11,465 bases of DNA from Gemmatimonadota bacterium (GCA_031372565.1 JANMLN010000195.1:1-11465); one strand, 5' to 3'. Positions 691-11,465 are shown, counted from the first letter of the stretch. The notes: a model not told the origin generated them from the letters alone. Program-made: numbers and translations.

Positions 691-2760
691 GTGCAGCTTG
701 GCGACGTGAATCAGCGCGCCTTTCTGAAGAACATGCAGGATTGGTCCTGCGTGGATGTTCGCCGTTGGGTGGTCGGCGGCGTGACAATTCAGGTCGTCGG
801 ATACCTCACGATCCTGGTCGTGGGCGTACTGGCTTTCGGGTGGGATCCGCTCATCACGCCACGCCTGCTCGTGGCGGCGGGAAGCTGTGGAGTGGCGCTC
901 GGCCTCGCATTGCGCGGCCACTATCAGACCGCCAGCCTCCTCGCGCTCTCGGTCACCTGGCTCGAGATCCAGGTCGGGTTTCTCACCAAGGCCGAAGCGA
1001 TCGGTCCCGGGCTCGCGGTGCTGCCGGTGCTCGTCATGGGCGTCTGCATTCTCACGGGGAGCCGCGCGGGGCTCGTGGTGGCCTTGGTCACCATTCTCGC
1101 GAGCGTCCTGTCGCATCGCCTCAACCCGTTCGTGCGAGAGTCCGGCTTCACGCCGCAGCTGGTCTATTGGCTGGCGATGCATGCGATCGGGGTGATGGCG
1201 GGGTGGACGATCATGACGCTCAGCCTCGAGGGCTTCAGCCGGGTCTTCACGCAGCTGCGCGCTCGCCAGCAGGACTTGGCGGATACGATCCGCTTTGCCC
1301 CCGACGGCATGCTCGTGGTGGATGCGGCGCAGGCGATCATCATCGCGAATCCCGCAGCCGAGGCAATCCTGCGGATGCCGGCAGAGCGCATCGTCGGGCG
1401 CACGTACACGGCCGTGCTTGCGGAAGCATCGGGACAGCCGGAGGATCCCGCCGCGCTGCCCGCAGACACCGGCGAAACGCCGATCGCGCTGCAGTGGGTC
1501 TCGCGCGATGGCACGGCGCTTCACGTGGAGGCCACCTGGCGCGGCATGGAGGGCGGGCGACGCGAGGTGCTCCTGCGCGACGTCTCGGTGCGGCGCCGGC
1601 TCGAGCAGGAGCGGCAAGCGATGGAAGCCCAGGTGGCGGAAGCGCGGCGCCTCGAGGCCGTCGGTCAGCTCGCGGGCGGGCTCTCGCACGACTTCAACAA
1701 CATCCTCACGGCCATCGGCGGGCTGGCCGAACTGCTGCGTGCGGAGGCCGATCCCACGGTGCGCGCCGCCCTCGCCGACGAGATGGCGGCCGCGCGCGAG
1801 CGCGGCGCGGCGCTCACGCGACAGCTCCTCGCCTTCGCGAATCGGGACGTGGTGCAGCCACGCGTGCTCGATCTGGCGGCCTTCGTGACGGCGCTCGAAC
1901 CGCGCCTGCGCGCACAACTGGGCGCGGAGCATTCGCTCGTGATCATGACGACCCCCGGCTGCTGGGTGCGGGCGGACGAGGCGCAGATCGCGCAGGCCAT
2001 CGAGAGCCTGGTGGCCAATGCGCAGGATGCGATGCGCACGGCGGGCCGGTGCACCATCACCGTCGACCACTACACCGGCGTGGTCGGGGTGCCGCAGGTG
2101 CGGCTGCGCGTGGCCGACACCGGCGCGGGCATGGCGCCGGGGGTTGCGGAGCGCGCCTTCGAACCCTTCTTCACGACCAAGGCGCGCGGCCACGGCCGGG
2201 GACTCGGGCTGACGATCGTGCACGCGCTGGTGACGCAGAGCGGTGGCATCTCGCGTATCCGATCGGAGAAGGGATCGGGCACCAGTGTCGAGATGGACCT
2301 GCCGTTGGTGGCGGCTCCGGCCCGGCAGACACCGACGTCTTCGGCCCCCGTGGTGGTCACCACGGGCCGCACGATCCTCCTCGCGGAGGACGACGATGGC
2401 ACGCGCTCGACCGTGGCGCGACTGCTGCGCCGGTCGGGCTACACGGTCATCGAGGCGCGCGATGGCACCGAGGGGCTGCATCTGGCGATGACGACGCGCG
2501 AGCCGATCCACCTGCTCCTGACCGACGTCATGATGCCCGGTCTGACCGGCCCCGCGCTCGCCGATCGCGTGCGCGACGTGGACGGGAGCATCCCCGTGCT
2601 CTTCATGACCGGGTACGCGGAACAGGATGTCGCCGCGCACCTCTCGGCGGGCCGGGCGGGCCGCGCGTTGATCGCGAAGCCGTTCGCGCCGGACGCACTC
2701 CTCACGCGGGTGGAGGCGCTCATGCGCGCGGGCCAGTCCGAGGACGCCCTCACGAGCTGA
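691..2760 (+). CDS. Membrane-bound hybrid sensor histidine kinase/response regulator (TM-PAS-HisKA-HATPase-REC, CckA-like architecture)
   Basis: Hydrophobic N-terminal helices; PAS (APDGMLVVD..ANPAAEAIL); H-box GGLSHDFNNIL; N-box ANAQDAM; DTGAGM, FEPFFTTK, GRGLGL; receiver LLAEDD..LLTDVMMPG..KPF. Exact start uncertain. Confidence 0.93.
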   Translation: MQLGDVNQRAFLKNMQDWSCVDVRRWVVGGVTIQVVGYLTILVVGVLAFGWDPLITPRLLVAAGSCGVALGLALRGHYQTASLLALSVTWLEIQVGFLTKAEAIGPGLAVLPVLVMGVCILTGSRAGLVVALVTILASVLSHRLNPFVRESGFTPQLVYWLAMHAIGVMAGWTIMTLSLEGFSRVFTQLRARQQDLADTIRFAPDGMLVVDAAQAIIIANPAAEAILRMPAERIVGRTYTAVLAEASGQPEDPAALPADTGETPIALQWVSRDGTALHVEATWRGMEGGRREVLLRDVSVRRRLEQERQAMEAQVAEARRLEAVGQLAGGLSHDFNNILTAIGGLAELLRAEADPTVRAALADEMAAARERGAALTRQLLAFANRDVVQPRVLDLAAFVTALEPRLRAQLGAEHSLVIMTTPGCWVRADEAQIAQAIESLVANAQDAMRTAGRCTITVDHYTGVVGVPQVRLRVADTGAGMAPGVAERAFEPFFTTKARGHGRGLGLTIVHALVTQSGGISRIRSEKGSGTSVEMDLPLVAAPARQTPTSSAPVVVTTGRTILLAEDDDGTRSTVARLLRRSGYTVIEARDGTEGLHLAMTTREPIHLLLTDVMMPGLTGPALADRVRDVDGSIPVLFMTGYAEQDVAAHLSAGRAGRALIAKPFAPDALLTRVEALMRAGQSEDALTS

Positions 2761-2833: not shown

Positions 2834-3904
2834 TCAGCGCTGGAGCCGCACCAGGGTGAAGTGCTGCTCCGCCACGTCGAGCGTGAGTGACATCGCGCGG
2901 TCAGCCCCCGGTGCGAATTCCGCCGTCCCCACCGTGTGGCGGAAGGCGAAGCGCGTGGCGGTTTCGGGCACGAGTTCCAGTTCGCGGTTGAATCCCCTGA
3001 GCGCCAGCAGCAGCCGGTCGTCGCGGCGCGTGATCGTCGCAACCGGACTGCCCTGCCGCCCGTAGCTCCCCGTGAGTGCGTCGAGCGCCTCGGCGCTCAT
3101 GCGCAGCGCGGGCCTGCTCTCAGCGAGCCCCGCCTCATCCGTCGGCAGGTCGGGGAGCGGGCGCGCCCAGATGTTGCGATAGCGCACGGGGTGCGCATGG
3201 TCTTGCAGGACCAGCGGCAGCGAATCGGCGTGGGCCTCGTACGGAGCAAACTGCAGCCAGCTGGTGCCGCCCCAGAAGGTCGCCCCGTCCTGCACGACGA
3301 CGCCGTTGTGCAGCACGGTCGCGCGGGCCGGCGTCACGAGCTTCCCCGCAGCGTCGAATCGCGGGCGGCGGAAGATGATGTCGTAGCTCTGCCAGGTCCC
3401 CGCAGGGAGAGACGCGTTCACGAGGGGCGGGTGCTGTCCGTACAGCGCGCCGGCCTGTCCGTCCGCGTACGTGTCGCTGCCGTGCGAGTCGAGCACCTGC
3501 ACTTCGTACTTCCCCATGATGATCACGCCACTGTTGCCGCGATCCTGCCCCTTGCCGCGCGGTGGTGACGGTGTGGCCCACTCAAGGTGCAGCTGCATGT
3601 CGCCGAGCCCGCGCCTTGTGATCAGCGGGCCGCCGCCCGGCGCGGTCTCCATGTAGCCGTCGCGAAGTGTCCACTTGGGCGGCGCGCCGCCGGGGCCGCT
3701 CCAGTGGCGCAGATCCGTGCCATCGAACAGGACGATCGCGTCGCTTGGCGGAGCCCCGGCGGCGGTGCCCGGCGTAACGATCGACGGCTTTGGGCGCGCG
3801 GGGTCGTGAGCTTTCCAGCGTGCGCCCTGCGCGCCAAGGGATGCGGGCAGCATCGCGCAGGTCATCGAGACCGCAAGGACGGCAGGGATTGAACAGAACC
3901 GCAT
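2834..3904 (-). CDS. Secreted DUF1080 / 3-keto-disaccharide hydrolase-like protein with C-terminal extension
   Basis: Motifs PPSDAIVLFDG, QLHLEW, GQDRGNSGV, YEVQVLDS, GALYGQ, WQSYDIIF, LQDH.HPVRYRNIW. Signal-peptide-like N-terminus; ATG at 3904 preceded by GAGG. Confidence 0.88.
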   Translation of the reverse strand: MRFCSIPAVLAVSMTCAMLPASLGAQGARWKAHDPARPKPSIVTPGTAAGAPPSDAIVLFDGTDLRHWSGPGGAPPKWTLRDGYMETAPGGGPLITRRGLGDMQLHLEWATPSPPRGKGQDRGNSGVIIMGKYEVQVLDSHGSDTYADGQAGALYGQHPPLVNASLPAGTWQSYDIIFRRPRFDAAGKLVTPARATVLHNGVVVQDGATFWGGTSWLQFAPYEAHADSLPLVLQDHAHPVRYRNIWARPLPDLPTDEAGLAESRPALRMSAEALDALTGSYGRQGSPVATITRRDDRLLLALRGFNRELELVPETATRFAFRHTVGTAEFAPGADRAMSLTLDVAEQHFTLVRLQR

Positions 3905-3984
3905 GAGGACCTCGTGGATGAATGGCGGCAGTACCCGGAACCGTGCCACGACCCTCACCAGCTCGCCCCAACCGCAACGCAAAA

Positions 3985-4013
3985 ACGGCCATCAGCACCA
4001 ACCGCCGTCATGC
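3985..4013 (-). repeat. Degenerate terminal attC-like site (left arm only)
   Basis: Minus strand GCATGACggcggttggtgctgatggccgt matches the left arm of the attC at 8567-8595 at 26/29 nt. No recognisable R' box downstream. Confidence 0.65.
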
Positions 4014-4042
4014 AGGCCCGCGGCGACGCATGGCGTACTGAT

Positions 4043-4360
4043 CTACTCAAGTCCGAGCGCACTGCGCGCTCCGGTGAAATCGACGAGTACCGCGCTGAGC
4101 ACCAGCGCGCTGGTCGCGAGAAGAAGCCACGTCACTCGGCGACCGGTGGCTCTCCCGGGGATGTCCGCACGGCGCAACATGCGCACGTTCAGCCCCAAGG
4201 CGACGGACGCCACAGCAGCGGTGAGCATCGCCAGCGCCTGGTACCCAAGCGGATTCGTCGGCACGCGCCAGTACAGGCCATTGAGCGCCGCCGCAGCGAC
4301 GGTGAACCAGAAGCCTGCGCCGAGATACTTGGACAGATGGCGAGCGACTCCGCCGCTCAA
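4043..4360 (-). CDS. Small hypothetical membrane protein (about 3 TM helices), cassette-borne
   Basis: Three hydrophobic stretches. Probable TTG start at 4360 after AAGGGG; the longer ORF-track start lies inside the attC. Confidence 0.55.
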   Translation of the reverse strand: MSGGVARHLSKYLGAGFWFTVAAAALNGLYWRVPTNPLGYQALAMLTAAVASVALGLNVRMLRRADIPGRATGRRVTWLLLATSALVLSAVLVDFTGARSALGLE

Positions 4361-4423
4361 CTGGGCCCCTTGGCTGGGAAGAGAAGTTGCTTCACGTTGA
4401 CGTGCACGGAGGTGGCTTGCTCG

Positions 4424-4512
4424 GCATAACGTGGGCTGGTGTTGCAGGCGCTTCCATAAAAAGTACGACAGGGCGCGGCCGCTCGCCTGCTTCCTCAACG
4501 CGGCGGTCAGAC
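4424..4512 (-). repeat. attC-like recombination site
   Basis: Minus: GTCTGAC...gcaggcg...cgcctgc...GTTATGC. Canonical GTT core; outer arms poorly paired. Confidence 0.65.
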
Positions 4513-4523
4513 ACCACGCGTCG

Positions 4524-5003
4524 TCATGTGGCGGCGCGCCGGTCTTGGTCCGCGTGCTCGAAGGTGAAGATGGTCACGGGCGCAGGATCGCCTCGGAGCG
4601 CCGTGTAGAATGCGACGGCGTGATCATCCTCAACGTCGGCGGGCACGAACGCAACCGTCACGCCGGCCGCGGCCGCGTCGCGGCAGAGGGTCTCGACCAA
4701 CCGGCGCCCAATGCCGCGGCGTTGGTGCGTGGGATGGACGGCGAGGTCGTAGATGAACAACTCGTGGGCTTCGTTCCGGGTCATCGGCAGCACGTGTGCC
4801 GTGATGCCCCCGACGGGATCCGCGCCATCCAGCGCGACGAGCGCCCAGAAGTCAGGTCGAGCGAGCAGGGCGTCGACGTAGGGGGCCGACAGCGCGTCGC
4901 CCCCCTCAGCGAAGACGGTGGTCATCAGGTCAAACGTCTGCTGTGCCAGGCGCCGATCAGAGGGGCCCAGGCGCTGTACGACGATGTCATCGCTGCGACG
5001 CAT
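4524..5003 (-). CDS. GNAT N-acetyltransferase, AAC(3)-I-like
   Basis: YVDALL..FWALVALDG..VGGITAHVLP..ELFIYDLAVHPTHQRRGIG..VPADVEDDHAVAFY parallels the AAC(3)-I motif order; acetyl-CoA motif QRRGIG. Confidence 0.85.
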   Translation of the reverse strand: MRRSDDIVVQRLGPSDRRLAQQTFDLMTTVFAEGGDALSAPYVDALLARPDFWALVALDGADPVGGITAHVLPMTRNEAHELFIYDLAVHPTHQRRGIGRRLVETLCRDAAAAGVTVAFVPADVEDDHAVAFYTALRGDPAPVTIFTFEHADQDRRAAT

Positions 5004-5028
5004 CGGTGCTCCAAGGTTGGCTTTGCCC

Positions 5029-5141
5029 ACATGACGAACAAGGTTCAGCTGCGGGGCCCTGACGAACGAACGGGAGGCGGCGCGGAGCCAAGCGCCATCG
5101 GGCAACTGCTCGGGCCCCGGCAGCTCCAACCGGCGCTAGCT
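5029..5141 (-). repeat. attC-like recombination site
   Basis: Minus: AGCTAGC gcc ggttggagctgccggggccc ... gggccccgcagctgaacc ttgttc GTCATGT. Extra unpaired bases on the left arm; overlaps the higA stop codon. Confidence 0.8.
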
Positions 5142-5438
5142 GGCCGCCGCGAAAATCTCGACTTCGGCACGCAGCCGACTGCCGAGGCGATCCCGCTCGG
5201 TCTCCAGGTCGAAGTGCGCCTGCAGGTTGAGCCAGAACTGGGCCGTGGTCCCGAAGAAGCGCGCGAGGCGCAGCGCGGTATCGGCACTGATGGCGCGCTT
5301 GCCGTGGACGATCTCGTTGATCCGGCGTGGCGGGACCGAGAGCGCGTGCGCGAGCCGGTACTGCGACAGACTCATGGGCACGAGGAACTCTTCGAGGAGG
5401 ACCTCGCCGGGATGGATGGGGGGCAGCTTCTTGGCCAT
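5136..5438 (-). CDS. higA: HigA family addiction-module antitoxin (HTH)
   Basis: PPIHPGEVLLEEFL..LSQYRLA..RRINEIVHGKRAISADTALRLARFFGTTAQFWLNLQ; AGGAG 5 nt upstream of the ATG at 5438. Confidence 0.95.
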   Translation of the reverse strand: MAKKLPPIHPGEVLLEEFLVPMSLSQYRLAHALSVPPRRINEIVHGKRAISADTALRLARFFGTTAQFWLNLQAHFDLETERDRLGSRLRAEVEIFAAAS

Positions 5439-5446
5439 ACGCACTC

Positions 5447-5728
5447 CTGGTGGTAGTCGACGATCTCGACGTCCAAGGCATCGGTGCCCGACCAGCGGAC
5501 GCAGATGCGCCACTGATCGTTGACGCGAATGCTGTACTGGCCCTCGCGATCACGCCGCAACTTCTCGAGGCGATTGCCGGGCGGCAGGCGGAGCTCCTCA
5601 AGCCGGCTGGCCGCGTGGAGGACGCCAAGTTTCCGCAGCATCACGCGCCGCAAATCGGCGGGGAAGCGTCGGACGGGCTCGCGCGCCCAGAGGCGCTCCG
5701 TGTCGCGGTCGGCAAAGCCTCGAATCGA
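5447..5728 (-). pseudogene. higB: HigB (RelE/ParE-family) toxin, apparently lacking a normal start and stop
   Basis: IRGFADRDTERLW..LRKL..LRLPPGNRLEKL..GQYSIRVNDQWRICVRW..DVEIVDYH. The expected start codon reads TCG (5726-5728). The expected stop reads CAG (5447-5449), so the frame stays open to 5372. Confidence 0.8.
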
Positions 5729-5733
5729 GTCGA

Positions 5734-5762
5734 ATAATAACGCTCGGCGTTATTACTGACAC
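5734..5762 (-). promoter_or_regulatory. higBA promoter with overlapping palindromic operator
   Basis: Perfect inverted repeat TAATAACGC-tcg-GCGTTATTA (5735-5755). Minus-strand -35-like GTGTCA (5757-5762), 17-nt spacer, -10-like TATTAT (5734-5739). Confidence 0.75.
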
Positions 5763-5779
5763 GAGGCCCGCTCGTGGCC

Positions 5780-5908
5780 AGCTGACGACCGGAAACAAGC
5801 TGCGAAGCGGTGTCCGCGTCCAAACGGCACGTCTCGGACATGAGGCGGCATGTCCATTCTGGCAACCATGCCGCCGAAAGCTTTGTCAGCGTCATCCCGT
5901 TGTTGGGC
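5780..5908 (-). repeat. attC-like recombination site
   Basis: Minus: canonical R'' GCCCAAC, arm gctgacaaagc pairing with gcttcgcagc, and R' GTCAGCT. Internal hairpin GGACATG-n6-CATGTCC (5836-5855). Confidence 0.8.
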
Positions 5909-5933
5909 GGCCCTGTGGCCAGACCCACATCCG

Positions 5934-6302
5934 TTAGCTCGTTCGCCCTTCTCCAACCGAGAACACCAGGCCGTCCGGATCGGTGTACTGCGCGACCCGG
6001 GCGCCGAACACGGTCTTGGGCTCCTGCACGCACGGCACGCCGTGAGCCACCATGCGCCCATGAAACTGGTCCAGGTCCGTTACCTGAAACCCCGGACGGC
6101 AAGATCCGGCACTTGGTTCGCTTGGCCCGCCGAATTGCCGCCCGACTCCGCCAGCATGGTGAAGCGCGAGAGTTGCTCCGTCAGTCCCGAACTCGGTCCA
6201 GTTCGCAGACTCGAACCGCAGGGGCAGCCCGAGCGTGTCACGGTAGAACGCGACGGCACGGCGCATGTCACTCACGAACACCATCGCGTAGTTGACTCGC
6301 AT
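5934..6302 (-). CDS. VOC / glyoxalase-bleomycin resistance family protein
   Basis: VNYAMVFVSDMRRAVAFYRDTLGL..F.V.DLD..G.RVAQYTDPDGLVFSV; purine-rich RBS upstream. Confidence 0.9.
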   Translation of the reverse strand: MRVNYAMVFVSDMRRAVAFYRDTLGLPLRFESANWTEFGTDGATLALHHAGGVGRQFGGPSEPSAGSCRPGFQVTDLDQFHGRMVAHGVPCVQEPKTVFGARVAQYTDPDGLVFSVGEGRTS

Positions 6303-6326
6303 CTGCCTTCCCTCACTCATGGGTCC

Positions 6327-6465
6327 GCCAAACGCTCGCGCTCTGCATCGAACGCCCACACGGATGTCAGCGGGGCGTTCGCTCCGCCCTTGAGGCTATC
6401 GCGAACGCCCCGCGCTCGCCACACCGATGCTGGCAGCGTGTGCCGGCAGCATCGTAGGGTTCGGC
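6327..6465 (-). repeat. attC-like recombination site
   Basis: Minus: GCCGAAC ... GTTTGGC. Contains a perfect 13-bp inner stem GCGGGGCGTTCGC/GCGAACGCCCCGC (6370-6382/6401-6413); outer arms degenerate. Confidence 0.65.
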
Positions 6466-6494
6466 CGCTCGCGGCAGCACCGGCGGCGCCTTCT

Positions 6495-7292
6495 CTACAG
6501 TGGCGACGTCCGACACCGCGCCGCCAAGAGGCCGGTGGCCGCGCGCAGGTCCACGTCCGCCAGCAACAGTCCGGCAAGCCCGTACGGTTGGGCGCACTGC
6601 AGCGACCCGTCCGGCCGGGCGACGGCCGACGTCGTACTGGAGCCGTCGCTCGCGTAGTTGACCGACGCGAAGTAGCACGTGTTCTCGGCGGCCCGACAGA
6701 GGATCGCCTTCTCATGAAACGAGTTCGCGGGATCGCCAAACGTCGTGGGGCGATACGCGCCTGGTTCGGCCCGACTCGCGTGGGGATGAAACACCACCTG
6801 CGCGCCCCGGCGCGCCGCCCACCGCACCGTCTCGGGATAGCGCCACCCCTCATGGCAGATCACGACGCCGAAGGTCAGGGGACCCGCCGTGAACACATGA
6901 CGGTCCGCCCCGAACGCGGGATACTGTTGCTCCTCGTCCGGATCCAGCTGCCCCTTGTCCTGCCAGCCCGCAATCGTGCCATCTGCACGGATCACACACG
7001 CCGTGATCTGCAGCCCGCGCGCCGTGAGGCGTTCGGTGCCGAGAATCACGGTGACGTCGGCCGCCCTGGCCGTCGCGGCTACGGTGACCAACGCCTGCTC
7101 GAGAAACACCGGGTCGGGCGCGGCGAGTGTCGTGTCGGGCCACCGATATCCGGGGATGAAGCACTCCGGAAAGCAGACGACGCGAGCCTGCTGTCGACCG
7201 GCCTCGAGGATCGCCGCGGTTGCGAGCTGGACGGACTCGGTGGGGGTGGTCGGCGCGCGGAGGTTGGCGAGGGCGATCCGCACGGTGGTCAT
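6495..7292 (-). CDS. Carbon-nitrogen hydrolase (nitrilase superfamily)
   Basis: Catalytic triad contexts FPECFIPGY (E), QDKGQL (K), VICHEG (C); RAAEN motif. Alternative start at 7304. Confidence 0.92.
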   Translation of the reverse strand: MTTVRIALANLRAPTTPTESVQLATAAILEAGRQQARVVCFPECFIPGYRWPDTTLAAPDPVFLEQALVTVAATARAADVTVILGTERLTARGLQITACVIRADGTIAGWQDKGQLDPDEEQQYPAFGADRHVFTAGPLTFGVVICHEGWRYPETVRWAARRGAQVVFHPHASRAEPGAYRPTTFGDPANSFHEKAILCRAAENTCYFASVNYASDGSSTTSAVARPDGSLQCAQPYGLAGLLLADVDLRAATGLLAARCRTSPL

Positions 7293-7344
7293 GGCATGGT
7301 CCAAGGAAAGTGGGGCCCAGCGTCGCGACGATCGTGGTTGTGCG

Positions 7345-7438
7345 GCCTGACGTCAAGTTGTGCTGTGGACGCTTCAATAATGCGACCGCGAAGCGGCCGC
7401 CATCAATAGCGCGGCCACCTGCACCACTTTCGTCATGC
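7345..7438 (-). repeat. attC-like recombination site
   Basis: Minus: GCATGAC ga aagtggtgcaggtggccgc ... gcgtccacagcacaactt gac GTCAGGC; well-paired arms. Confidence 0.8.
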
Positions 7439-7490
7439 CGCACTGTACCATCGGGAGACCCTTCGGCGACGCTGCCCGTGCACCGCTCTT

Positions 7491-7889
7491 CTAGCGCTGC
7501 TTCACGCGCTCGCGGATATCGCGGTACGCGGCCTCAACTAGCGCTTCCAGTGCTGGCGTGTCAACGATCGTCATCGCGGTGAGCCTCACATGGCGCATGT
7601 ACTTGCCAGCGCCCTCCAGGAGACCGGTACGGTCGCCAAGCACTGCCCCGTGGAAGAAGCCCACGTTCAGGTGCGTCCTGAAGATGTTGACATACGCAAA
7701 CGGCGCCGCGTCGACGCAGACGACGGGGCAGCCATCATGCACGAGCTCGCGCACGTCCGGACCAAACCGACGCATCCGTGCATGCCAGTGCTGCGCGATC
7801 TCTTGCAGTACGCCCGAGTGTCGCGCGAACCACTCGGCCACGGCAGGGTCGCGCTCAAGCCCGGATGAGAACCGTAGTAGCGAAGTCAA
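7491..7889 (-). CDS. DUF1801 (YdhG-like) domain protein
   Basis: DVRELVHDGCP..PFAYVN..HLNVGFFHGAVL.D..GLLEGAGKYMRHVRL..LEALVEAAY; TTG start at 7889 after GAGGAG. Confidence 0.85.
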   Translation of the reverse strand: MTSLLRFSSGLERDPAVAEWFARHSGVLQEIAQHWHARMRRFGPDVRELVHDGCPVVCVDAAPFAYVNIFRTHLNVGFFHGAVLGDRTGLLEGAGKYMRHVRLTAMTIVDTPALEALVEAAYRDIRERVKQR

Positions 7890-7923
7890 TCTGTCAGCTC
7901 CTCGCAGTTGGTGTGCGCACACC

Positions 7924-7953
7924 GCCCGCGCCAGCGGCATGTGCTGGTCATGC
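7924..7953 (-). repeat. Truncated attC-like site (R'' and left arm only)
   Basis: Minus GCATGACcagcacatgccgctggcgcgggc, 26 nt after the GNAT stop. No matching right arm or R' before the next RBS. Confidence 0.55.
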
Positions 7954-7979
7954 GGCGGCGCCAGGGAAGCGGCCGAGTC

Positions 7980-8516
7980 CTATGGCCTGACCGCGCGCTC
8001 AAAGCAGAGCGCATCAGGCAACAAACCGTCCCGATAGTGAGGAATCGGAACGAACCCGAGGCGCCGGTACAATGCCTGCGCCGCAGCCAGCTCGGGGGCC
8101 GTGTCGAGACGGATGGTATTGAACCCGAGCCTTTCCGCCTCTGCCACGAGGCCCCGAGTAATGGCCTCGCCGACTCCACGCCCTCGCGCGGCGGGCCTGA
8201 CATAAACGCGCTTGATCTCCGCATGGCCCGACGTCTCCAAAGCGAGCAAAGCACCGCAGCCCCAGGCATCACCGTCTTCAGTAGCGACGAGGAGCGCTCC
8301 GCCCGGATGCAAGTAGGGTCGCGGCAGCGCCGCAATCTCGGCATTGGCCGTCGGCCACCGACCCACGGTATGGGGCAACGCCGCATACTCGCGCACCAAA
8401 GTCCGCGCGAGCTCGACCAGATCGGGATCTGACTGCTCCGAAACACGGAGGATCGGTATCGTGTGCCCCAAGGACGGTGTTCCAAAGACCGAGTTGCGGT
8501 GTTTCGCAAGAACCAT
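7980..8516 (-). CDS. GNAT family N-acetyltransferase
   Basis: GCGAL..AEIKRVYVRPAARGRGVG..IRLDT..AAQALYRRLGF. Start is ATG 8516 or TTG 8471, and must lie downstream of the attC at 8523. Confidence 0.88.
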   Translation of the reverse strand: MVLAKHRNSVFGTPSLGHTIPILRVSEQSDPDLVELARTLVREYAALPHTVGRWPTANAEIAALPRPYLHPGGALLVATEDGDAWGCGALLALETSGHAEIKRVYVRPAARGRGVGEAITRGLVAEAERLGFNTIRLDTAPELAAAQALYRRLGFVPIPHYRDGLLPDALCFERAVRP

Positions 8517-8522
8517 GAAGTC

Positions 8523-8595
8523 GCATAACTTCAAGGTGTGCCGCGGTCGCCCATCTGCTGCACTAGACGGCCGTCGGCACCAACTGCCGTCATGC
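8523..8595 (-). repeat. attC-like recombination site
   Basis: Minus: GCATGAC..gtgccg(a)cggccgtcta...tgggcgaccgcggcac..GTTATGC; extrahelical base in the left arm. Confidence 0.82.
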
Positions 8596-8605
8596 GGTGC
8601 CCGCG

Positions 8606-9091
8606 CTACCGCCCGCGCGGCACCGGAGCCGACGAGTGGCCGGCGACGATCCGCCATCCCGCAGGCTCATGCTGCAGGGTCATAGTGATCGCACCGGAGA
8701 ATCCGAAGCTCACACCAGCCGAGTCCATGAACTGGGTGGCAAAATGGGCGGCGACTCCCGCGACGCCGGGGCCGAGCGGTTGGAGCACCACGTTCGTGTA
8801 TGCGGTCTTGATGCGCGTACCGACTGGCAGGGCGGCGAGTGCCGAGCGGACCGCGGCCGCGTCGGCATAGCGGACCTCACCACTCTCGACAAAACGAAAG
8901 TCGGCCCGCCCGGAGTAGAGAGCCGCGAGTGAGTCCCACCGTGCGTTCTCGGACAAGCGAGTAAAGTCTGCGAGGAACACGCGCGCACTATCGGCGATCG
9001 CGGCGGCGTGCTCCGCGCTCAGTTCGGCGCGCGGCTGAGCGCATGCGACCGACCCGAGCAAGATCAGGAGTGCGGCGAGTCGAGCCTGCAT
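8606..9091 (-). CDS. Secreted NTF2/SnoaL-like (DUF4440-like) protein
   Basis: Signal-peptide-like N-terminus; WDSLAALY..; C-terminal GWRIVAGHSS motif; AGGAG RBS. Confidence 0.8.
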   Translation of the reverse strand: MQARLAALLILLGSVACAQPRAELSAEHAAAIADSARVFLADFTRLSENARWDSLAALYSGRADFRFVESGEVRYADAAAVRSALAALPVGTRIKTAYTNVVLQPLGPGVAGVAAHFATQFMDSAGVSFGFSGAITMTLQHEPAGWRIVAGHSSAPVPRGR

Positions 9092-9128
9092 CTGTCACTC
9101 CTGGTAGCGGTTCGAGGCCTGTGCATCC

Positions 9129-9233
9129 ACATGACGAACAAGGTTGAGCGGCGGAGCCATGCCACAAATTGGTGCGGCCCGAAGGGTCGCGCCATCAGCC
9201 CTGGCGGCTCCGTCAGTTGCACCGGCCTTAGCC
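9129..9233 (-). repeat. attC-like recombination site
   Basis: Minus: GGCTAAG gcc ggtgcaactgacggagcc...ggctccgccgctcaacc ttgttc GTCATGT. Overlaps the upstream stop codon; its end is 29/32 identical to the site at 5027-5058. Confidence 0.8.
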
Positions 9234-9668
9234 ACTGCGAGCACGGAGCTTCCATCCTCCATCAAGCAGGGGGACGCTGGCGCACGCGGGTCCGCCGTCA
9301 CGCGCCGTGCCTTGTATTGCGACCTCGAGGACGACGGGACCATCAGCCTTCAGCAGCTCTGACTTCTCGATGGCGCTGAGCGGAACCTTCGCGCGGCGGT
9401 CCCAGCTCGATCGAGTGTCACCGGCGCGCTGACCCGCGTTGACATACACGAAGCGTCCGGCAGGCGGCCCCTGCACGGCTTCGCCGCGCAGCTGCACAAC
9501 GCCGCGCGCGTTGGGCCCGAACACGACCGGGACGTCGAATACCACGCGATGACCCGTAACCGATACCGGCGGAAGCAGCGCATCGCGCCCGAGTTGCACG
9601 GCCCATCGGGCATCCGCGGGTGGATCGACGAGCGTAATCCGCAACGTCACCGATACGTCTCCCTTCAT
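9228..9668 (-). CDS. DUF5990-like hypothetical protein
   Basis: LRITLVDPP..RGEAVQGPPAGRFVYVN.G..WDRRAKVPL..GTARDGGPACASV resembles DUF5990 from memory. The ORF fills the space between two attC sites. Confidence 0.75.
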   Translation of the reverse strand: MKGDVSVTLRITLVDPPADARWAVQLGRDALLPPVSVTGHRVVFDVPVVFGPNARGVVQLRGEAVQGPPAGRFVYVNAGQRAGDTRSSWDRRAKVPLSAIEKSELLKADGPVVLEVAIQGTARDGGPACASVPLLDGGWKLRARSG

Positions 9669-9699
9669 GTCTACGAGTCCCCGGAGCGCTGTGGCAACT

Positions 9700-9795
9700 G
9701 GCTAACGAATCGCGCTTCTGCTGCGGCACCGCTCTGGCTTCTTGCACCGACGCGCGGAAACCGGGTGCGCCGTCGGCAGCAAGCGCTGGTCAGCC
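9700..9795 (-). repeat. attC-like recombination site
   Basis: Minus: GGCTGAC ca gcgcttgctgccgacggcgc ... gtgccgcagcagaagcgc gattc GTTAGCC; strongly paired arms. Confidence 0.85.
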
Positions 9796-9846: not shown

Positions 9847-11324
9847 CTATCTCGGGCTCACCACCCGATCAAACCGCATGTTGCGACTCCGCTCGGTAGA
9901 CAGCCCGAAACCGGAAATGGAGCCATCTGGTCGCCGAGTGAATCGTATTGAAATGTCCGATCTGAACTCGTCGGGTTCCGCCATCGCAAAAACCGGGGAC
10001 CTGATGCCCGGCCCCCGCACAATCATGCCGCTATCCGATGCGCTGATCTCGATCGTGCTCTGAAGTTCCTCGCTGAAGTATCTCCCCACAAACTCCTGAA
10101 GGGCTACCACGCTGACTGGTGTCTCGTTTGGCTCCTTGACCCGCACCATGGTGAACTCGCCTTGCACGCCCTGCCACTGGAAGCTGCGAGCGGGTTCGCC
10201 CCCCGCCAGATCGAACCTGATGGATGCCTCGATGGGCGTCCCCAGCACCTCGAATCGGTACGAGCCGATGTGCCGGAGCTCGTAGCGCTGGCCCTCGACC
10301 GACAAGTGCAGCTTTCCCTGATCCACCGCTACTGTCATATCGGGCGCCTTGCCTCGAAATGTGCCGACAAGGAGCGGCAGTGCGTTCGGGGGCAGGCTGA
10401 CCTTCGGGAGGGCAGAGAGCGGGGGGGGCGTTGAAACGCCCGCGGTTGCTGCGGCCGATGGAACAGGAAGGAAGATGTTCGCAACCCGCATTGCGTGCAC
10501 GTCCGGATCGGCGTCGCTCCTGTTGCAGAGCACGGCAACCGACAGGCGCTGGTCGGGATACCGGGTCAGCTGCGACACATACCCACCCCAATGGCCGCTA
10601 TGTCCAACGGCACGATGTCCCCGGTACGAGGTGATCGACAGGCCAAGGCCATAGTTGGTCGATTGCCCACTCGTCTGGCGGCCAGGCTGTTCGAGCGTGT
10701 CAATCATCGCCCTGCCGCCAAGCCGTGCGTCGTGGAAGTTCTTCTCCCACCGGAACAGCTCCTCGATGCTGGTCCATACGCCACCGTCGCCGATCTGCAG
10801 CCACCGGGGCATGTCAGCCCTGAAGCCGGAGTCGTTCAGCGGTGAATAGCCCGTCGCACGCGCCGGGACAACGGCATTGTAGCTCGTCAGGAAGTGGGTC
10901 TGGCGCATGCCGAGTGGAGCAAAGAGCCGCTCGCGCGCAACGACGTGCAGCGGTGCGCCCGTCACGCGCTGCACGACCAGTGACATCAGGAAATAGCCGG
11001 TGCTGCCGTACAGAAACTCGGTGCCAGGTGGGAAGTTGAGCGCCCTTTGTCGGACGATCACCGTGAGCGCGTCCTCGTCGGTGGTCACGTCATCTTCACG
11101 ATGCCCGCTCAGCACGAGCAGGCGTACATAGTCCCGGAGGCCGCTCGTGTGGTGGAACAGATGGCGGAGCGTGATCGTGTGTCCGTAGTCGGGCAACTCG
11201 GAGATGTATTTCCGGATGTCATCGTCGAGGGAGAGTCTACCCTCCTGGGCCAGTAACGTGACCACGGCCGCGGTGAACTGTTTTGACACCGAAGCGATGT
11301 CGAGCATCGACTGTGGCGTCAGGG
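9847..11324 (-). pseudogene. Serine hydrolase (beta-lactamase/AmpC-PBP family), N-terminus cut off by IS insertion
   Basis: IASVSKQF (SxxK), LFHHTSG, FPPGTEFLYGSTGY, GDGG, HSG. The frame continues upstream (LTPQSM) up to the IS end at 11325, with no native start or signal peptide. Confidence 0.85.
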
Positions 11325-11465
11325 TGGACTTACCCCGGTTTAGTGGACACGTGACTCAGGCCGCAGCGGCCTGATCGTGCAGGAACCGTTCGTACTGCAT
11401 CGGGGAGCGATAGCCCAGCGACGAATGCAGCCGCTCCAGATTGTACCAGCGATCAATGAACTCGA
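11325..11465 (-). mobile_element. IS3-family insertion sequence, right end
   Basis: Terminal IR TGGACTTACCCCGGTTTAGTGGACA (11325-11349) gives the ...CA end on the minus strand, next to the transposase C-terminus. Confidence 0.9.
11356..11465 (-). CDS. IS3-family transposase OrfB, C-terminal fragment
   Basis: Manual translation EFIDRWYNLERLHSSLGYRSPMQYERFLHDQAAAA*, matching the YN..R.HS.LGY..P motif. Confidence 0.9.
   Translation of the reverse strand, partial: EFIDRWYNLERLHSSLGYRSPMQYERFLHDQAAAA

Follow-up and report, generated by a model that had tools for sequence, protein, structure and literature searches.

An integron-type cassette array with altered attC core triplets in a Gemmatimonadales-like metagenome-assembled genome

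Among the sequence features of integron attC sites only the AAC/GTT triplet is regarded as fixed, and it anchors the models used to detect them. Here we describe a cassette array in which this triplet is altered in about half of the sites, while related genomes keep the canonical form. The window analysed is an entire contig of 11,465 bp (C6), from a Gemmatimonadales-like metagenome-assembled genome (G000) of 4.44 Mb, 68.4% G+C and 201 contigs. From ~11307 down to 3928 it carries throughout minus-strand genes that are short, unrelated and of the types typical of integron cassettes. Ten attC-type sites lie in tandem, in one orientation, between these promoterless cassettes at 3928-9795 of the minus strand, each directly 3' of one open reading frame (ORF) or ORF pair. 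This is a genuine integron cassette array. A preliminary description of the window had recognised it and set its limits at 3985..9795, which is too narrow, since it extends to 3928 and to at least 11307.

Anatomy of the array

The attC sites were read on the minus strand and then extracted by script. They are listed as R''...R' in window coordinates, with the scores of two covariance models, R1, built from five window sites, and R2, rebuilt from 14 sites of the same genome.

9700..9795 (-): attC A, behind the truncated serine-hydrolase cassette; R'' GGCTGAC, R' GTTAGCC; R1 seed, 57.9 bits
9129..9233 (-): attC B, of the B/H subfamily; R'' GGCTAAG, overlapping a TAA stop, R' GTCATGT; nhmmer 92.7 bits
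8523..8595 (-): attC C; R'' GCATGAC, R' GTTATGC; R1 78.8 bits
~7895..7953 (-): attC D, a remnant; R'' GCATGAC, partial stem, no recognisable GTN R'; only an 8.5-bit partial R1 match at 7934-7956
7345..7438 (-): attC E; R'' GCATGAC, R' GTCAGGC; R1 61.1 bits, R2 74.2 bits
6347..6465 (-): attC F, long, with two inner hairpins, a manual reading at a cassette boundary; R'' GCCGAAC, R' GTTCGAT
5780..5939 (-): attC G, 160 nt, a manual reading; R'' AGCTAAC, overlapping a TAA stop, R' GTCAGCT
5029..5141 (-): attC H, of the B/H subfamily; R'' AGCTAGC, R' GTCATGT; nhmmer 72.7 bits
4424..4529 (-): attC I; R'' ACATGAC, overlapping the TGA stop of the GNAT gene, R' GTTATGC; R1 69 bits, R2 81.6 bits
3928..4013 (-): attC J, the final site; R'' GCATGAC, degenerate R' GTACTGC; R1 74.9 bits

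R'' thus ends in GAC in 6/10 sites, in AAC in 2/10, and in AAG and AGC once each; R' begins with GTC in four sites, GTT in four and GTA in one (J), and is lost at D. The canonical triplet is present in only 2/10 R'' boxes (AAC) and 4/9 R' boxes (GTT). The preliminary description had reported the same R'' counts and GTC in four of eight R' boxes (5029, 5780, 7345 and 9129); re-reading reproduces these figures and adds J as a ninth, degenerate R'. Its R'' positions also agree, with the exception of 4506, where GAC sits in a conserved L''-stem motif: covariance-model alignment places the R'' of that GNAT cassette at 4523-4529 (ACATGAC), and, as this is likewise GAC, the count of six stands.

The register of the odd cores, which had been proposed to be that of the true core, is confirmed by homologous sites. 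In the B/H subfamily, four copies (contigs C73, C119 and C125) have GTT in the alignment column that follows ...AACCTTGTTC, and B, H and C123:1123 have GTC there; because the homologous column reads GTT elsewhere, GTC marks the true R', and the same alignment rules out the neighbouring GTT (as in ...CTTGTTCGTCATG...) as R'. Logan contigs from three runs of one study span all boxes with 0 differences in each of six records. Hence, the odd cores are no sequence error, and both array and cores are real.

All ten window sites, folded as DNA, form the hairpin of paired R and L boxes expected of attC. The hairpin of A is closed by its R boxes on both strands, the fold of F also closes with the R boxes, and in G the R boxes form a terminal helix on either strand (of 8 bp in the bottom-strand fold). 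Strand choice in attC depends on extrahelical bases and on a central spacer left unpaired; the folds here show bulges, and 4-6 nt separate R from L boxes. Concerning detection, R1 was too sequence-specific, with B, F and H scoring at noise level; neither model found F above noise (7.5 bits) or detected G. A MAFFT alignment of all ten sites was unusable owing to their length differences, nhmmer profiles of the arms added little, and a scan of the window against Rfam (E up to 10) gave 0 matches.

In the six window sites with R'' GAC the top-strand fold is more stable than the bottom-strand fold (6/6). GAC in R'' facing GTT in R' gives a G·T wobble on the top strand and, on the bottom strand, the one that recombines, an A·C mismatch; this mismatch, together with the predicted top-strand preference, would be a further reason to expect reduced activity.

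The genes of the array and its immediate surroundings are as follows.

11356..11465 (-): 3' end of an IS3-type transposase gene (rve), PF13333/PF13683 on a 35-aa fragment; the contig ends inside it
9847..11307 (-): beta-lactamase/D-aminopeptidase-like serine hydrolase cassette, N-terminally truncated; PF00144 match from profile position 51 at residue 3
9228..9668 (-): cassette 2, DUF5990 protein (Pfam, 118.6 bits)
8606..9091 (-): cassette 3, SnoaL/NTF2-like protein (Pfam); begins TCATGT, own R'' GCATGAC
7980..8516 (-): cassette 4, GNAT acetyltransferase (Pfam)
7491..7889 (-): cassette 5, DUF1801/DUF5655 protein (Pfam)
6495..7304 (-): cassette 6, carbon-nitrogen hydrolase of the nitrilase superfamily (Pfam)
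5934..6302 (-): cassette 7, glyoxalase/bleomycin-resistance-fold protein (Pfam)
5136..5740 (-): cassette 8, HigB-like toxin and HTH (HigA-like) antitoxin (Pfam PF05015, PF01381)
4524..5003 (-): cassette 9, GNAT acetyltransferase (Pfam; NF033083 92 bits, cut-off 200)
4043..4360 (-): cassette 10, small hydrophobic protein without clear family membership (ORF list; sub-threshold Pfam match only)
2834..3904 (-): flanking gene past the last attC, secreted 3-keto-disaccharide-hydrolase-domain protein (Pfam)

The serine hydrolase lacks about its first 50 residues and adjoins the end of the transposase gene, and all its NCBIfam matches are far under cut-off. Because the contig breaks inside this insertion sequence (IS), the IS3-type element probably splits the array. 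The closest named relative of cassette 9 is the AAC(3)-I family, far under whose cut-off it scores. Cassette 8 is the only one with GTC R' boxes on both flanks (sites G and H). A perfect 8-bp inverted repeat, AATAACGC...GCGTTATT, just 5' of it (within 5136-5790) probably serves as its operator. In the HigB-like frame no ATG, GTG or TTG start lies ahead of the Pfam domain, and the frame overlaps the antitoxin gene by 66 nt. Below 3928 lie ordinary-looking chromosomal genes, including that for the 3-keto-disaccharide-hydrolase-domain protein and one for a hybrid histidine kinase, and R1 gave no match below 3925 except a spurious one of 26 nt; the window thus holds the terminal end of the array. 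Open stretches at 300-690, between the start of a short-chain-dehydrogenase-like gene (~289) and the histidine kinase gene (691), resemble by eye PAS/kinase and response-regulator receiver fragments and are possibly gene remnants.

An attC family canonical in relatives

R2 gave 26 matches in G000 at E up to 0.05, and a census of the genome, to which a B/H-subfamily nhmmer profile and the reading by eye of three more sites also contributed, counts 34 sites on 12 contigs. R'' is AAC in 13, GAC in 10, CAC in 4 and otherwise in 7 (n=34), and R' is GTT in 17, GTC in 9 and otherwise in 7 (n=33). R2 also matches 42/100 related genomes, with E down to 1e-17, and 38/60 genomes of the same taxonomic family; since the family recurs in this way across relatives, the sites are not due to chance. 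In the window the 5' arm of J is near-identical to that of C, and E is 83% identical to a canonical site in one relative (G005). Base-pair counts speak for the hairpin: over 14 sites of G000 the paired cells make up 82% (75% in shuffles), and 7 pairs are altered on both sides; in 105 matches from relatives the paired fraction is 87%.

The covariance model and scan of related genomes proposed in the preliminary description therefore yield a lineage-wide family, and in relatives it is canonical. The sample of relatives comprises 39 loci with R2 matches from 29 genomes, a subset of the ~150 matches listed; removal of 9 opposite-strand duplicates from the 105 aligned matches leaves 96. R'' is AAC in 82/96 and GAC in 5, and R' is GTT in 86/96 and GTC in 3, with three more GTT read 1-2 bases out of register by a fixed-offset script; in the four same-genus genomes the figures are AAC 14/16 and GTT 15/16. 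Because GAC-rich sites made up the training set of R2, a bias of the model, if any, would act against this result. Fisher tests of G000 against relatives give p from 4e-7 to 3e-3, a significance overstated because sites and genomes are non-independent. One genome flagged as unpublished (G038) contributes 1/96 sites and 1/5 GAC, and no other argument uses flagged genomes. The core pair itself is A-U in 88, G-U in 6 and G-C in 2 of 104 cells in relatives, against A-U in 0, G-U in 5, G-C in 4 and others in 4 of 13 cells in G000 (14 sequences, one gap). Relatives are thus canonical, and G000 is the exception.

These data bear on a first alternative, in which the integrase does not read the third core letter, so that GTY/RAC sites are fully functional and the array works as a variant system, under-detected by standard attC models. 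The retention of R/L-box hairpins with covarying outer pairs and the mostly open cassette ORFs are in its favour. It has to contend with the canonical sites of relatives whose integrases are 55-72% identical, and we regard it as unlikely for this and for the reasons given below.

By the usual mechanism, the integrase would bind the bottom strand of attC in its folded form, cutting opposite G|TT, and the last two core letters would go with the downstream cassette. When the array was compared with the relatives by BLAST, a single close ortholog emerged, that of the SnoaL cassette, in a genome of another genus (G015, locus L065 on G015:C17), 88.6% identical over 616 aligned positions. There the boundary reads GTTATGC and the cassette's own R'' GCATAAC, against GTCATGT and GCATGAC in the window. 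The cassettes upstream are different ones, and homology sets in precisely at G|T, which confirms the crossover point. A canonical state thus exists for the SnoaL cassette itself, and in this comparison both changes are on the G000 side. The preliminary description had held that orthologs with AAC/GTT and no covariation would speak against a divergent integron system: the first half is borne out, G015 being GTT/AAC, and the second is not, as the T-to-C and A-to-G changes compensate each other, which fits a tolerant integrase. A lone compensated ortholog is, in turn, expected if roughly every second site is altered on each side. Site C is ~59 nt shorter than its G015 ortholog, by a deletion that takes the central hairpin and spares both arms. 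A second SnoaL allele, ~90% identical over 8686-8940 (24 differences in 255 nt), is present in Logan runs X1, X2 and X4 at a depth at least that of the window allele, indicating that a related cassette circulates in the same community.

The second cassette letter (T or C) was compared with position 5 of the cassette's own R'' (A or G) in the eight window cassettes whose two ends can be read, and no covariation was found (T-A 2, T-G 2, C-G 2, C-A 2), at odds with fully functional GTY/RAC sites. Three further cassettes on C22 and C123 read C/C, C/C and T/G. The two compensated cassettes previously pointed out, SnoaL/NTF2-like and GNAT, are real and are not the rule, given the two T/G and two C/A cassettes beside them.

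Integrase, attI and the position of the changes

A search for the cognate integrase, suggested earlier, found one integron integrase in G000, intact and ordinary, on contig C195 outside the window. It scores 407 bits with TIGR02249 (cut-off 265) and 265 bits with VchIntIA (2A3V), the latter match spanning the integron-specific insertion, and shows the motifs GSGLR, GKGxK, HTFRHSF, LGH and IYTHV; its nearest named relatives are from Gemmatimonadetes/Gemmatimonadales bins. That the integrase is intact fits tolerance of the altered cores. Compared with 28 relatives it departs from the >=85% consensus only at V8, D49, V57, E149 and I225, all conservatively, and it retains the GKG-x-K lysine equivalent to VchIntIA K160, which contacts T3; an altered specificity is hence unsupported by its residues, and this counts against a tolerant enzyme.

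The gene points to the contig end, with housekeeping genes upstream. A candidate attI motif, TTGAATACAC|GTTA, lies ~170 nt after its stop, and the contig continues far enough to include the start of the first cassette. The motif is found at the same place in three other same-genus genomes (four in total), after which the sequences diverge. As read from gene order, this would be a co-directional integron, with intI, attI and cassettes on one strand, an order that G003:C152 shares. Integrases with this co-directional ('inverted') orientation are known from some phyla. The intI/attI region and the window array are on separate contigs, C195 and C6; no TIGR02249 match was found on C6, which breaks in the IS 1.5 kb past site A.

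A second attI-like region lies at ~1921-2150 (-) of contig C125, with the same TTGAATACAC|GTTAG core, upstream TAGG-type repeats and ~200 nt homologous to the intI-adjacent site; it has no integrase, and a divergent enolase-superfamily-like gene lies upstream. It could be an orphan integron platform or a sign of a second population in the bin. Three cassettes follow it, and the sites directly behind it (1457-1349, 909-793 and 484-376) are all AAC/GTT. Both attI-like sites of the genome read GTT, and this, with the canonical cassettes beside one of them, speaks against an integrase indifferent to the third letter. Taken together, the canonical relatives, the GTT of the attI sites, the ordinary integrase and the lack of covariation in the window count against the divergent integron system that had been proposed.

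The changes are strongly uneven along the core. In the census they number 17/5/2 at R'' positions 5/6/7 and 1/4/13 at R' positions 1/2/3, so that the crossover letters G1/C7 are nearly unchanged, while T3 and A5 vary freely, as a tolerant integrase would allow. The affected pair is one for which experimental data exist. In the portion available of the report of Frumerie et al. (PMC2811028), where the GTT triplet is described as absolutely conserved among integrons known in 2009, IntI1 requires its partner sites to match at G1, and K171 of that enzyme (VchIntIA K160) contacts T3 and A2'. An attC with T3 changed to C recombines at wild-type level with a wild-type attI (GTT); GTC x GTC is 150-fold lower, and cleavage of a GTC attC is undetectable in vitro (PMC2811028). 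IntI1 thus accepts GTC in one partner, as a tolerant integrase would, and the low GTC x GTC level and lack of cleavage run the other way. The engineered mutants concern the same pair as here (T3/A1' to C/G), which makes natural GTC sites plausible substrates; they differ in being complementary doubles, in class 1 and VCR (Vibrio cholerae repeat) sites, acted on by IntI1, whereas the changes here are mostly non-complementary, belong to a distant integrase and are read from sequence only. As the change is concentrated on the T3/A pair, in line with the IntI1 data, some tolerance of a GTY core is probable, and this part of the preliminary description stands. By analogy, GTC sites probably still recombine with GTT partners, and the sites with the GAC/GTT mismatch, as well as D and J, are probably weakened or dead. 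A bolder form, in which the conserved triplet would functionally be a doublet (G-T/A-C) in this Gemmatimonadales lineage, the third pair and its pairing being ignored and GTC, GAC and CAC all active, seems to us improbable.

The same distribution bears on a second alternative, that the array is an inert fossil, an attC-site cluster with no integron integrase (CALIN) or a cut-off distal segment, without recombination and decaying neutrally toward a G+C-rich composition. In the genome TGAC (29779) is 18-fold commoner than TAAC (1658), with observed/expected ratios of 0.97 and 1.01, which rejects avoidance of the word TAAC/GTTA; any loosening there would thus soon give rise to GAC, in keeping with neutral decay, as are the core pair without complementarity and the differences between the orthologous SnoaL cassettes, which lean from weak to strong (33 vs 22). 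This lean is only modest, and a strong AT-to-GC drive in that cassette is rejected. Neutral decay should moreover hit both A's and both T's alike, against the 17 vs 5 and 13 vs 4 seen (sites non-independent; CTAG avoidance may contribute), and the outer pairing of R and L boxes is still 81-83%. The unequal hits thus argue against plain neutral decay, and we give the fossil little credence, if somewhat more than the tolerant integrase. The decay offered as an alternative in the preliminary description, taken as ageing or drift of an old array, fits better than a divergent system; it is not simple neutral decay, the three core positions being hit very unequally.

Probable ageing of the array

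Several features suggest age. Site D has no R', so that cassettes 4 and 5 are effectively fused; J has GTA, C carries its internal deletion of 59 nt, and the IS interrupts the array. These defects, with the IS3-type insertion and the absence of an integrase on the contig, would also be expected of an inert fossil. Plainly broken sites also occur elsewhere in the genome (C89, two on C106, C187) and, like D and J, coexist with the altered ones, which sits badly with a fully functional variant system. The two sites of C106 are near-identical (GCCTCAC...GCTAGAT, 51027-51123 and 52519-52615), 1.5 kb apart; that contig also holds a weak tyrosine-recombinase match (14242-14973), and the pair resembles a duplicated unit that lies apart from the main arrays. 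On C73, C119 and C125 taken together, 8/9 sites are AAC/GTT, the ninth having AAC and no recognisable GTN at the expected R'. Among relatives, both non-AAC sites in the array of the complete genome G055 fall within the distal four of its ten sites, and on G056:C3 the final site detected is degenerate.

We consider it probable, with some reserve, that the cores arose by drift from a canonical family under relaxed, not absent, constraint, in old and rarely moved terminal cassettes. The window would be the terminal stretch, of about ten cassettes, of a chromosomal integron-type array with its integrase on another contig, and its sites would descend from a family that is canonical (AAC...GTT) across the taxonomic family. 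In about half of all sites of the genome the innermost core pair, T3 of GTT and the first A of AAC, would have been replaced, mostly by transitions (GAC, GTC), the two sides changing independently. Such drift would fall on the core position best tolerated by the recombinase, in a genome of 68% G+C, and would accompany the other signs of ageing (lost R', internal deletion, degenerate last R', IS).

Several points weigh against drift. With an integrase that looks intact, relaxed selection has no obvious cause. In the sole ortholog comparison the two changes compensate each other. The outer R-box pairs are paired in 81% of cells, with five altered on both sides, and this, with the inequality between positions, indicates that constraint persists; a functional tolerant system would look alike. 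A change at position 6 or T2 in CTAAC/GTTAG makes CTAG, a word strongly avoided in the genome (observed/expected 0.35), so that avoidance alone could depress such changes, which weakens the argument from the gradient. Many GAC sites share GCATGAC and may stem from one founder site, with fewer independent changes. The contrast between contigs is also less firm than the counts suggest, as C73 and C119 were singled out after their cores had been seen and only C125, placed by its attI, is a prior grouping; the bin, furthermore, may mix two populations (2% contamination, two attI regions).

Contigs of four runs of one study (a freshwater sediment metagenome), the form in which the read data were used, contain no clean cassette-excision joint. 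Two joints, 5058-to-9164 (+6 nt, 25-nt sides) and 7380-to-4463 (+32 nt), link homologous attC arms in contigs of several runs; they are most likely due to other attC copies or de Bruijn branching and probably not to rearrangements of this array.

A third alternative is that the core changes were selected because they hinder excision and so fix useful cassettes, for example the toxin-antitoxin cassette. The HigBA cassette is indeed bounded by GTC on both sides (G and H), GTC x GTC recombination by IntI1 is 150-fold lower (PMC2811028), and stabilisation of arrays through loss of integron activity has been proposed for Xanthomonas, in the part available of that report (10.1101/2025.06.18.660453). 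Of the nine pairs of neighbouring window sites only one is GTC x GTC, however, and drift predicts the same pattern equally; we hold such selection to be very improbable.

The array can be set beside known systems. Like sedentary chromosomal integrons such as the Vibrio cholerae superintegron with its VCR sites (PMC8352920, in the sections available), it has many promoterless cassettes, a homogeneous, lineage-specific attC family in a large array, toxin-antitoxin cassettes inside the array and an IntI with the integron-specific insertion; it differs in that intI is co-directional with the cassettes and about half of the sites lack the AAC/GTT triplet. The 11 taxa modelled in that study, as given in those sections, include no Gemmatimonadota, a phylum in which integrons have already been recorded according to the available text of another (PMC8618304). 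Like CALIN, as defined in the accessible part of PMC4889954, the window has ten attC sites, no integrase on the contig and an IS at the edge, the last reported there for 38% of CALIN, the IntI of the genome being elsewhere; it differs in that the contig ends inside the IS, so that the array may continue toward the integron, and in that CALIN, which require two or more attC sites away from any intI, are defined by IntegronFinder attC calls. With the integrons of Xanthomonas (10.1101/2025.06.18.660453, available part, and Gillings et al. 2005 as summarised there) it shares an ancestral chromosomal integron and arrays that are static in some lineages; erosion in Xanthomonas affects intI, by frameshifts and deletions, whereas here intI looks intact and the attC cores are eroded. 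A literature search, not designed to be exhaustive, found no account of a natural array whose cores are GTC/GAC.

The window thus provides a natural array whose triplet is altered at one position in half of the sites, the hairpin being otherwise kept and close relatives canonical. Arrays like this may be partly missed or mis-bounded by finders based on the consensus. The sites, the integrase and the two attI sites form a concrete set for testing the need for the triplet in a non-proteobacterial integron. If the doublet reading were true, the array would be a natural mutational scan of the attC core letters that are needed, and standard models would under-count such arrays. As it stands, the ageing of a cassette array, mainly of interest to integron specialists, is more likely than a divergent integron system.

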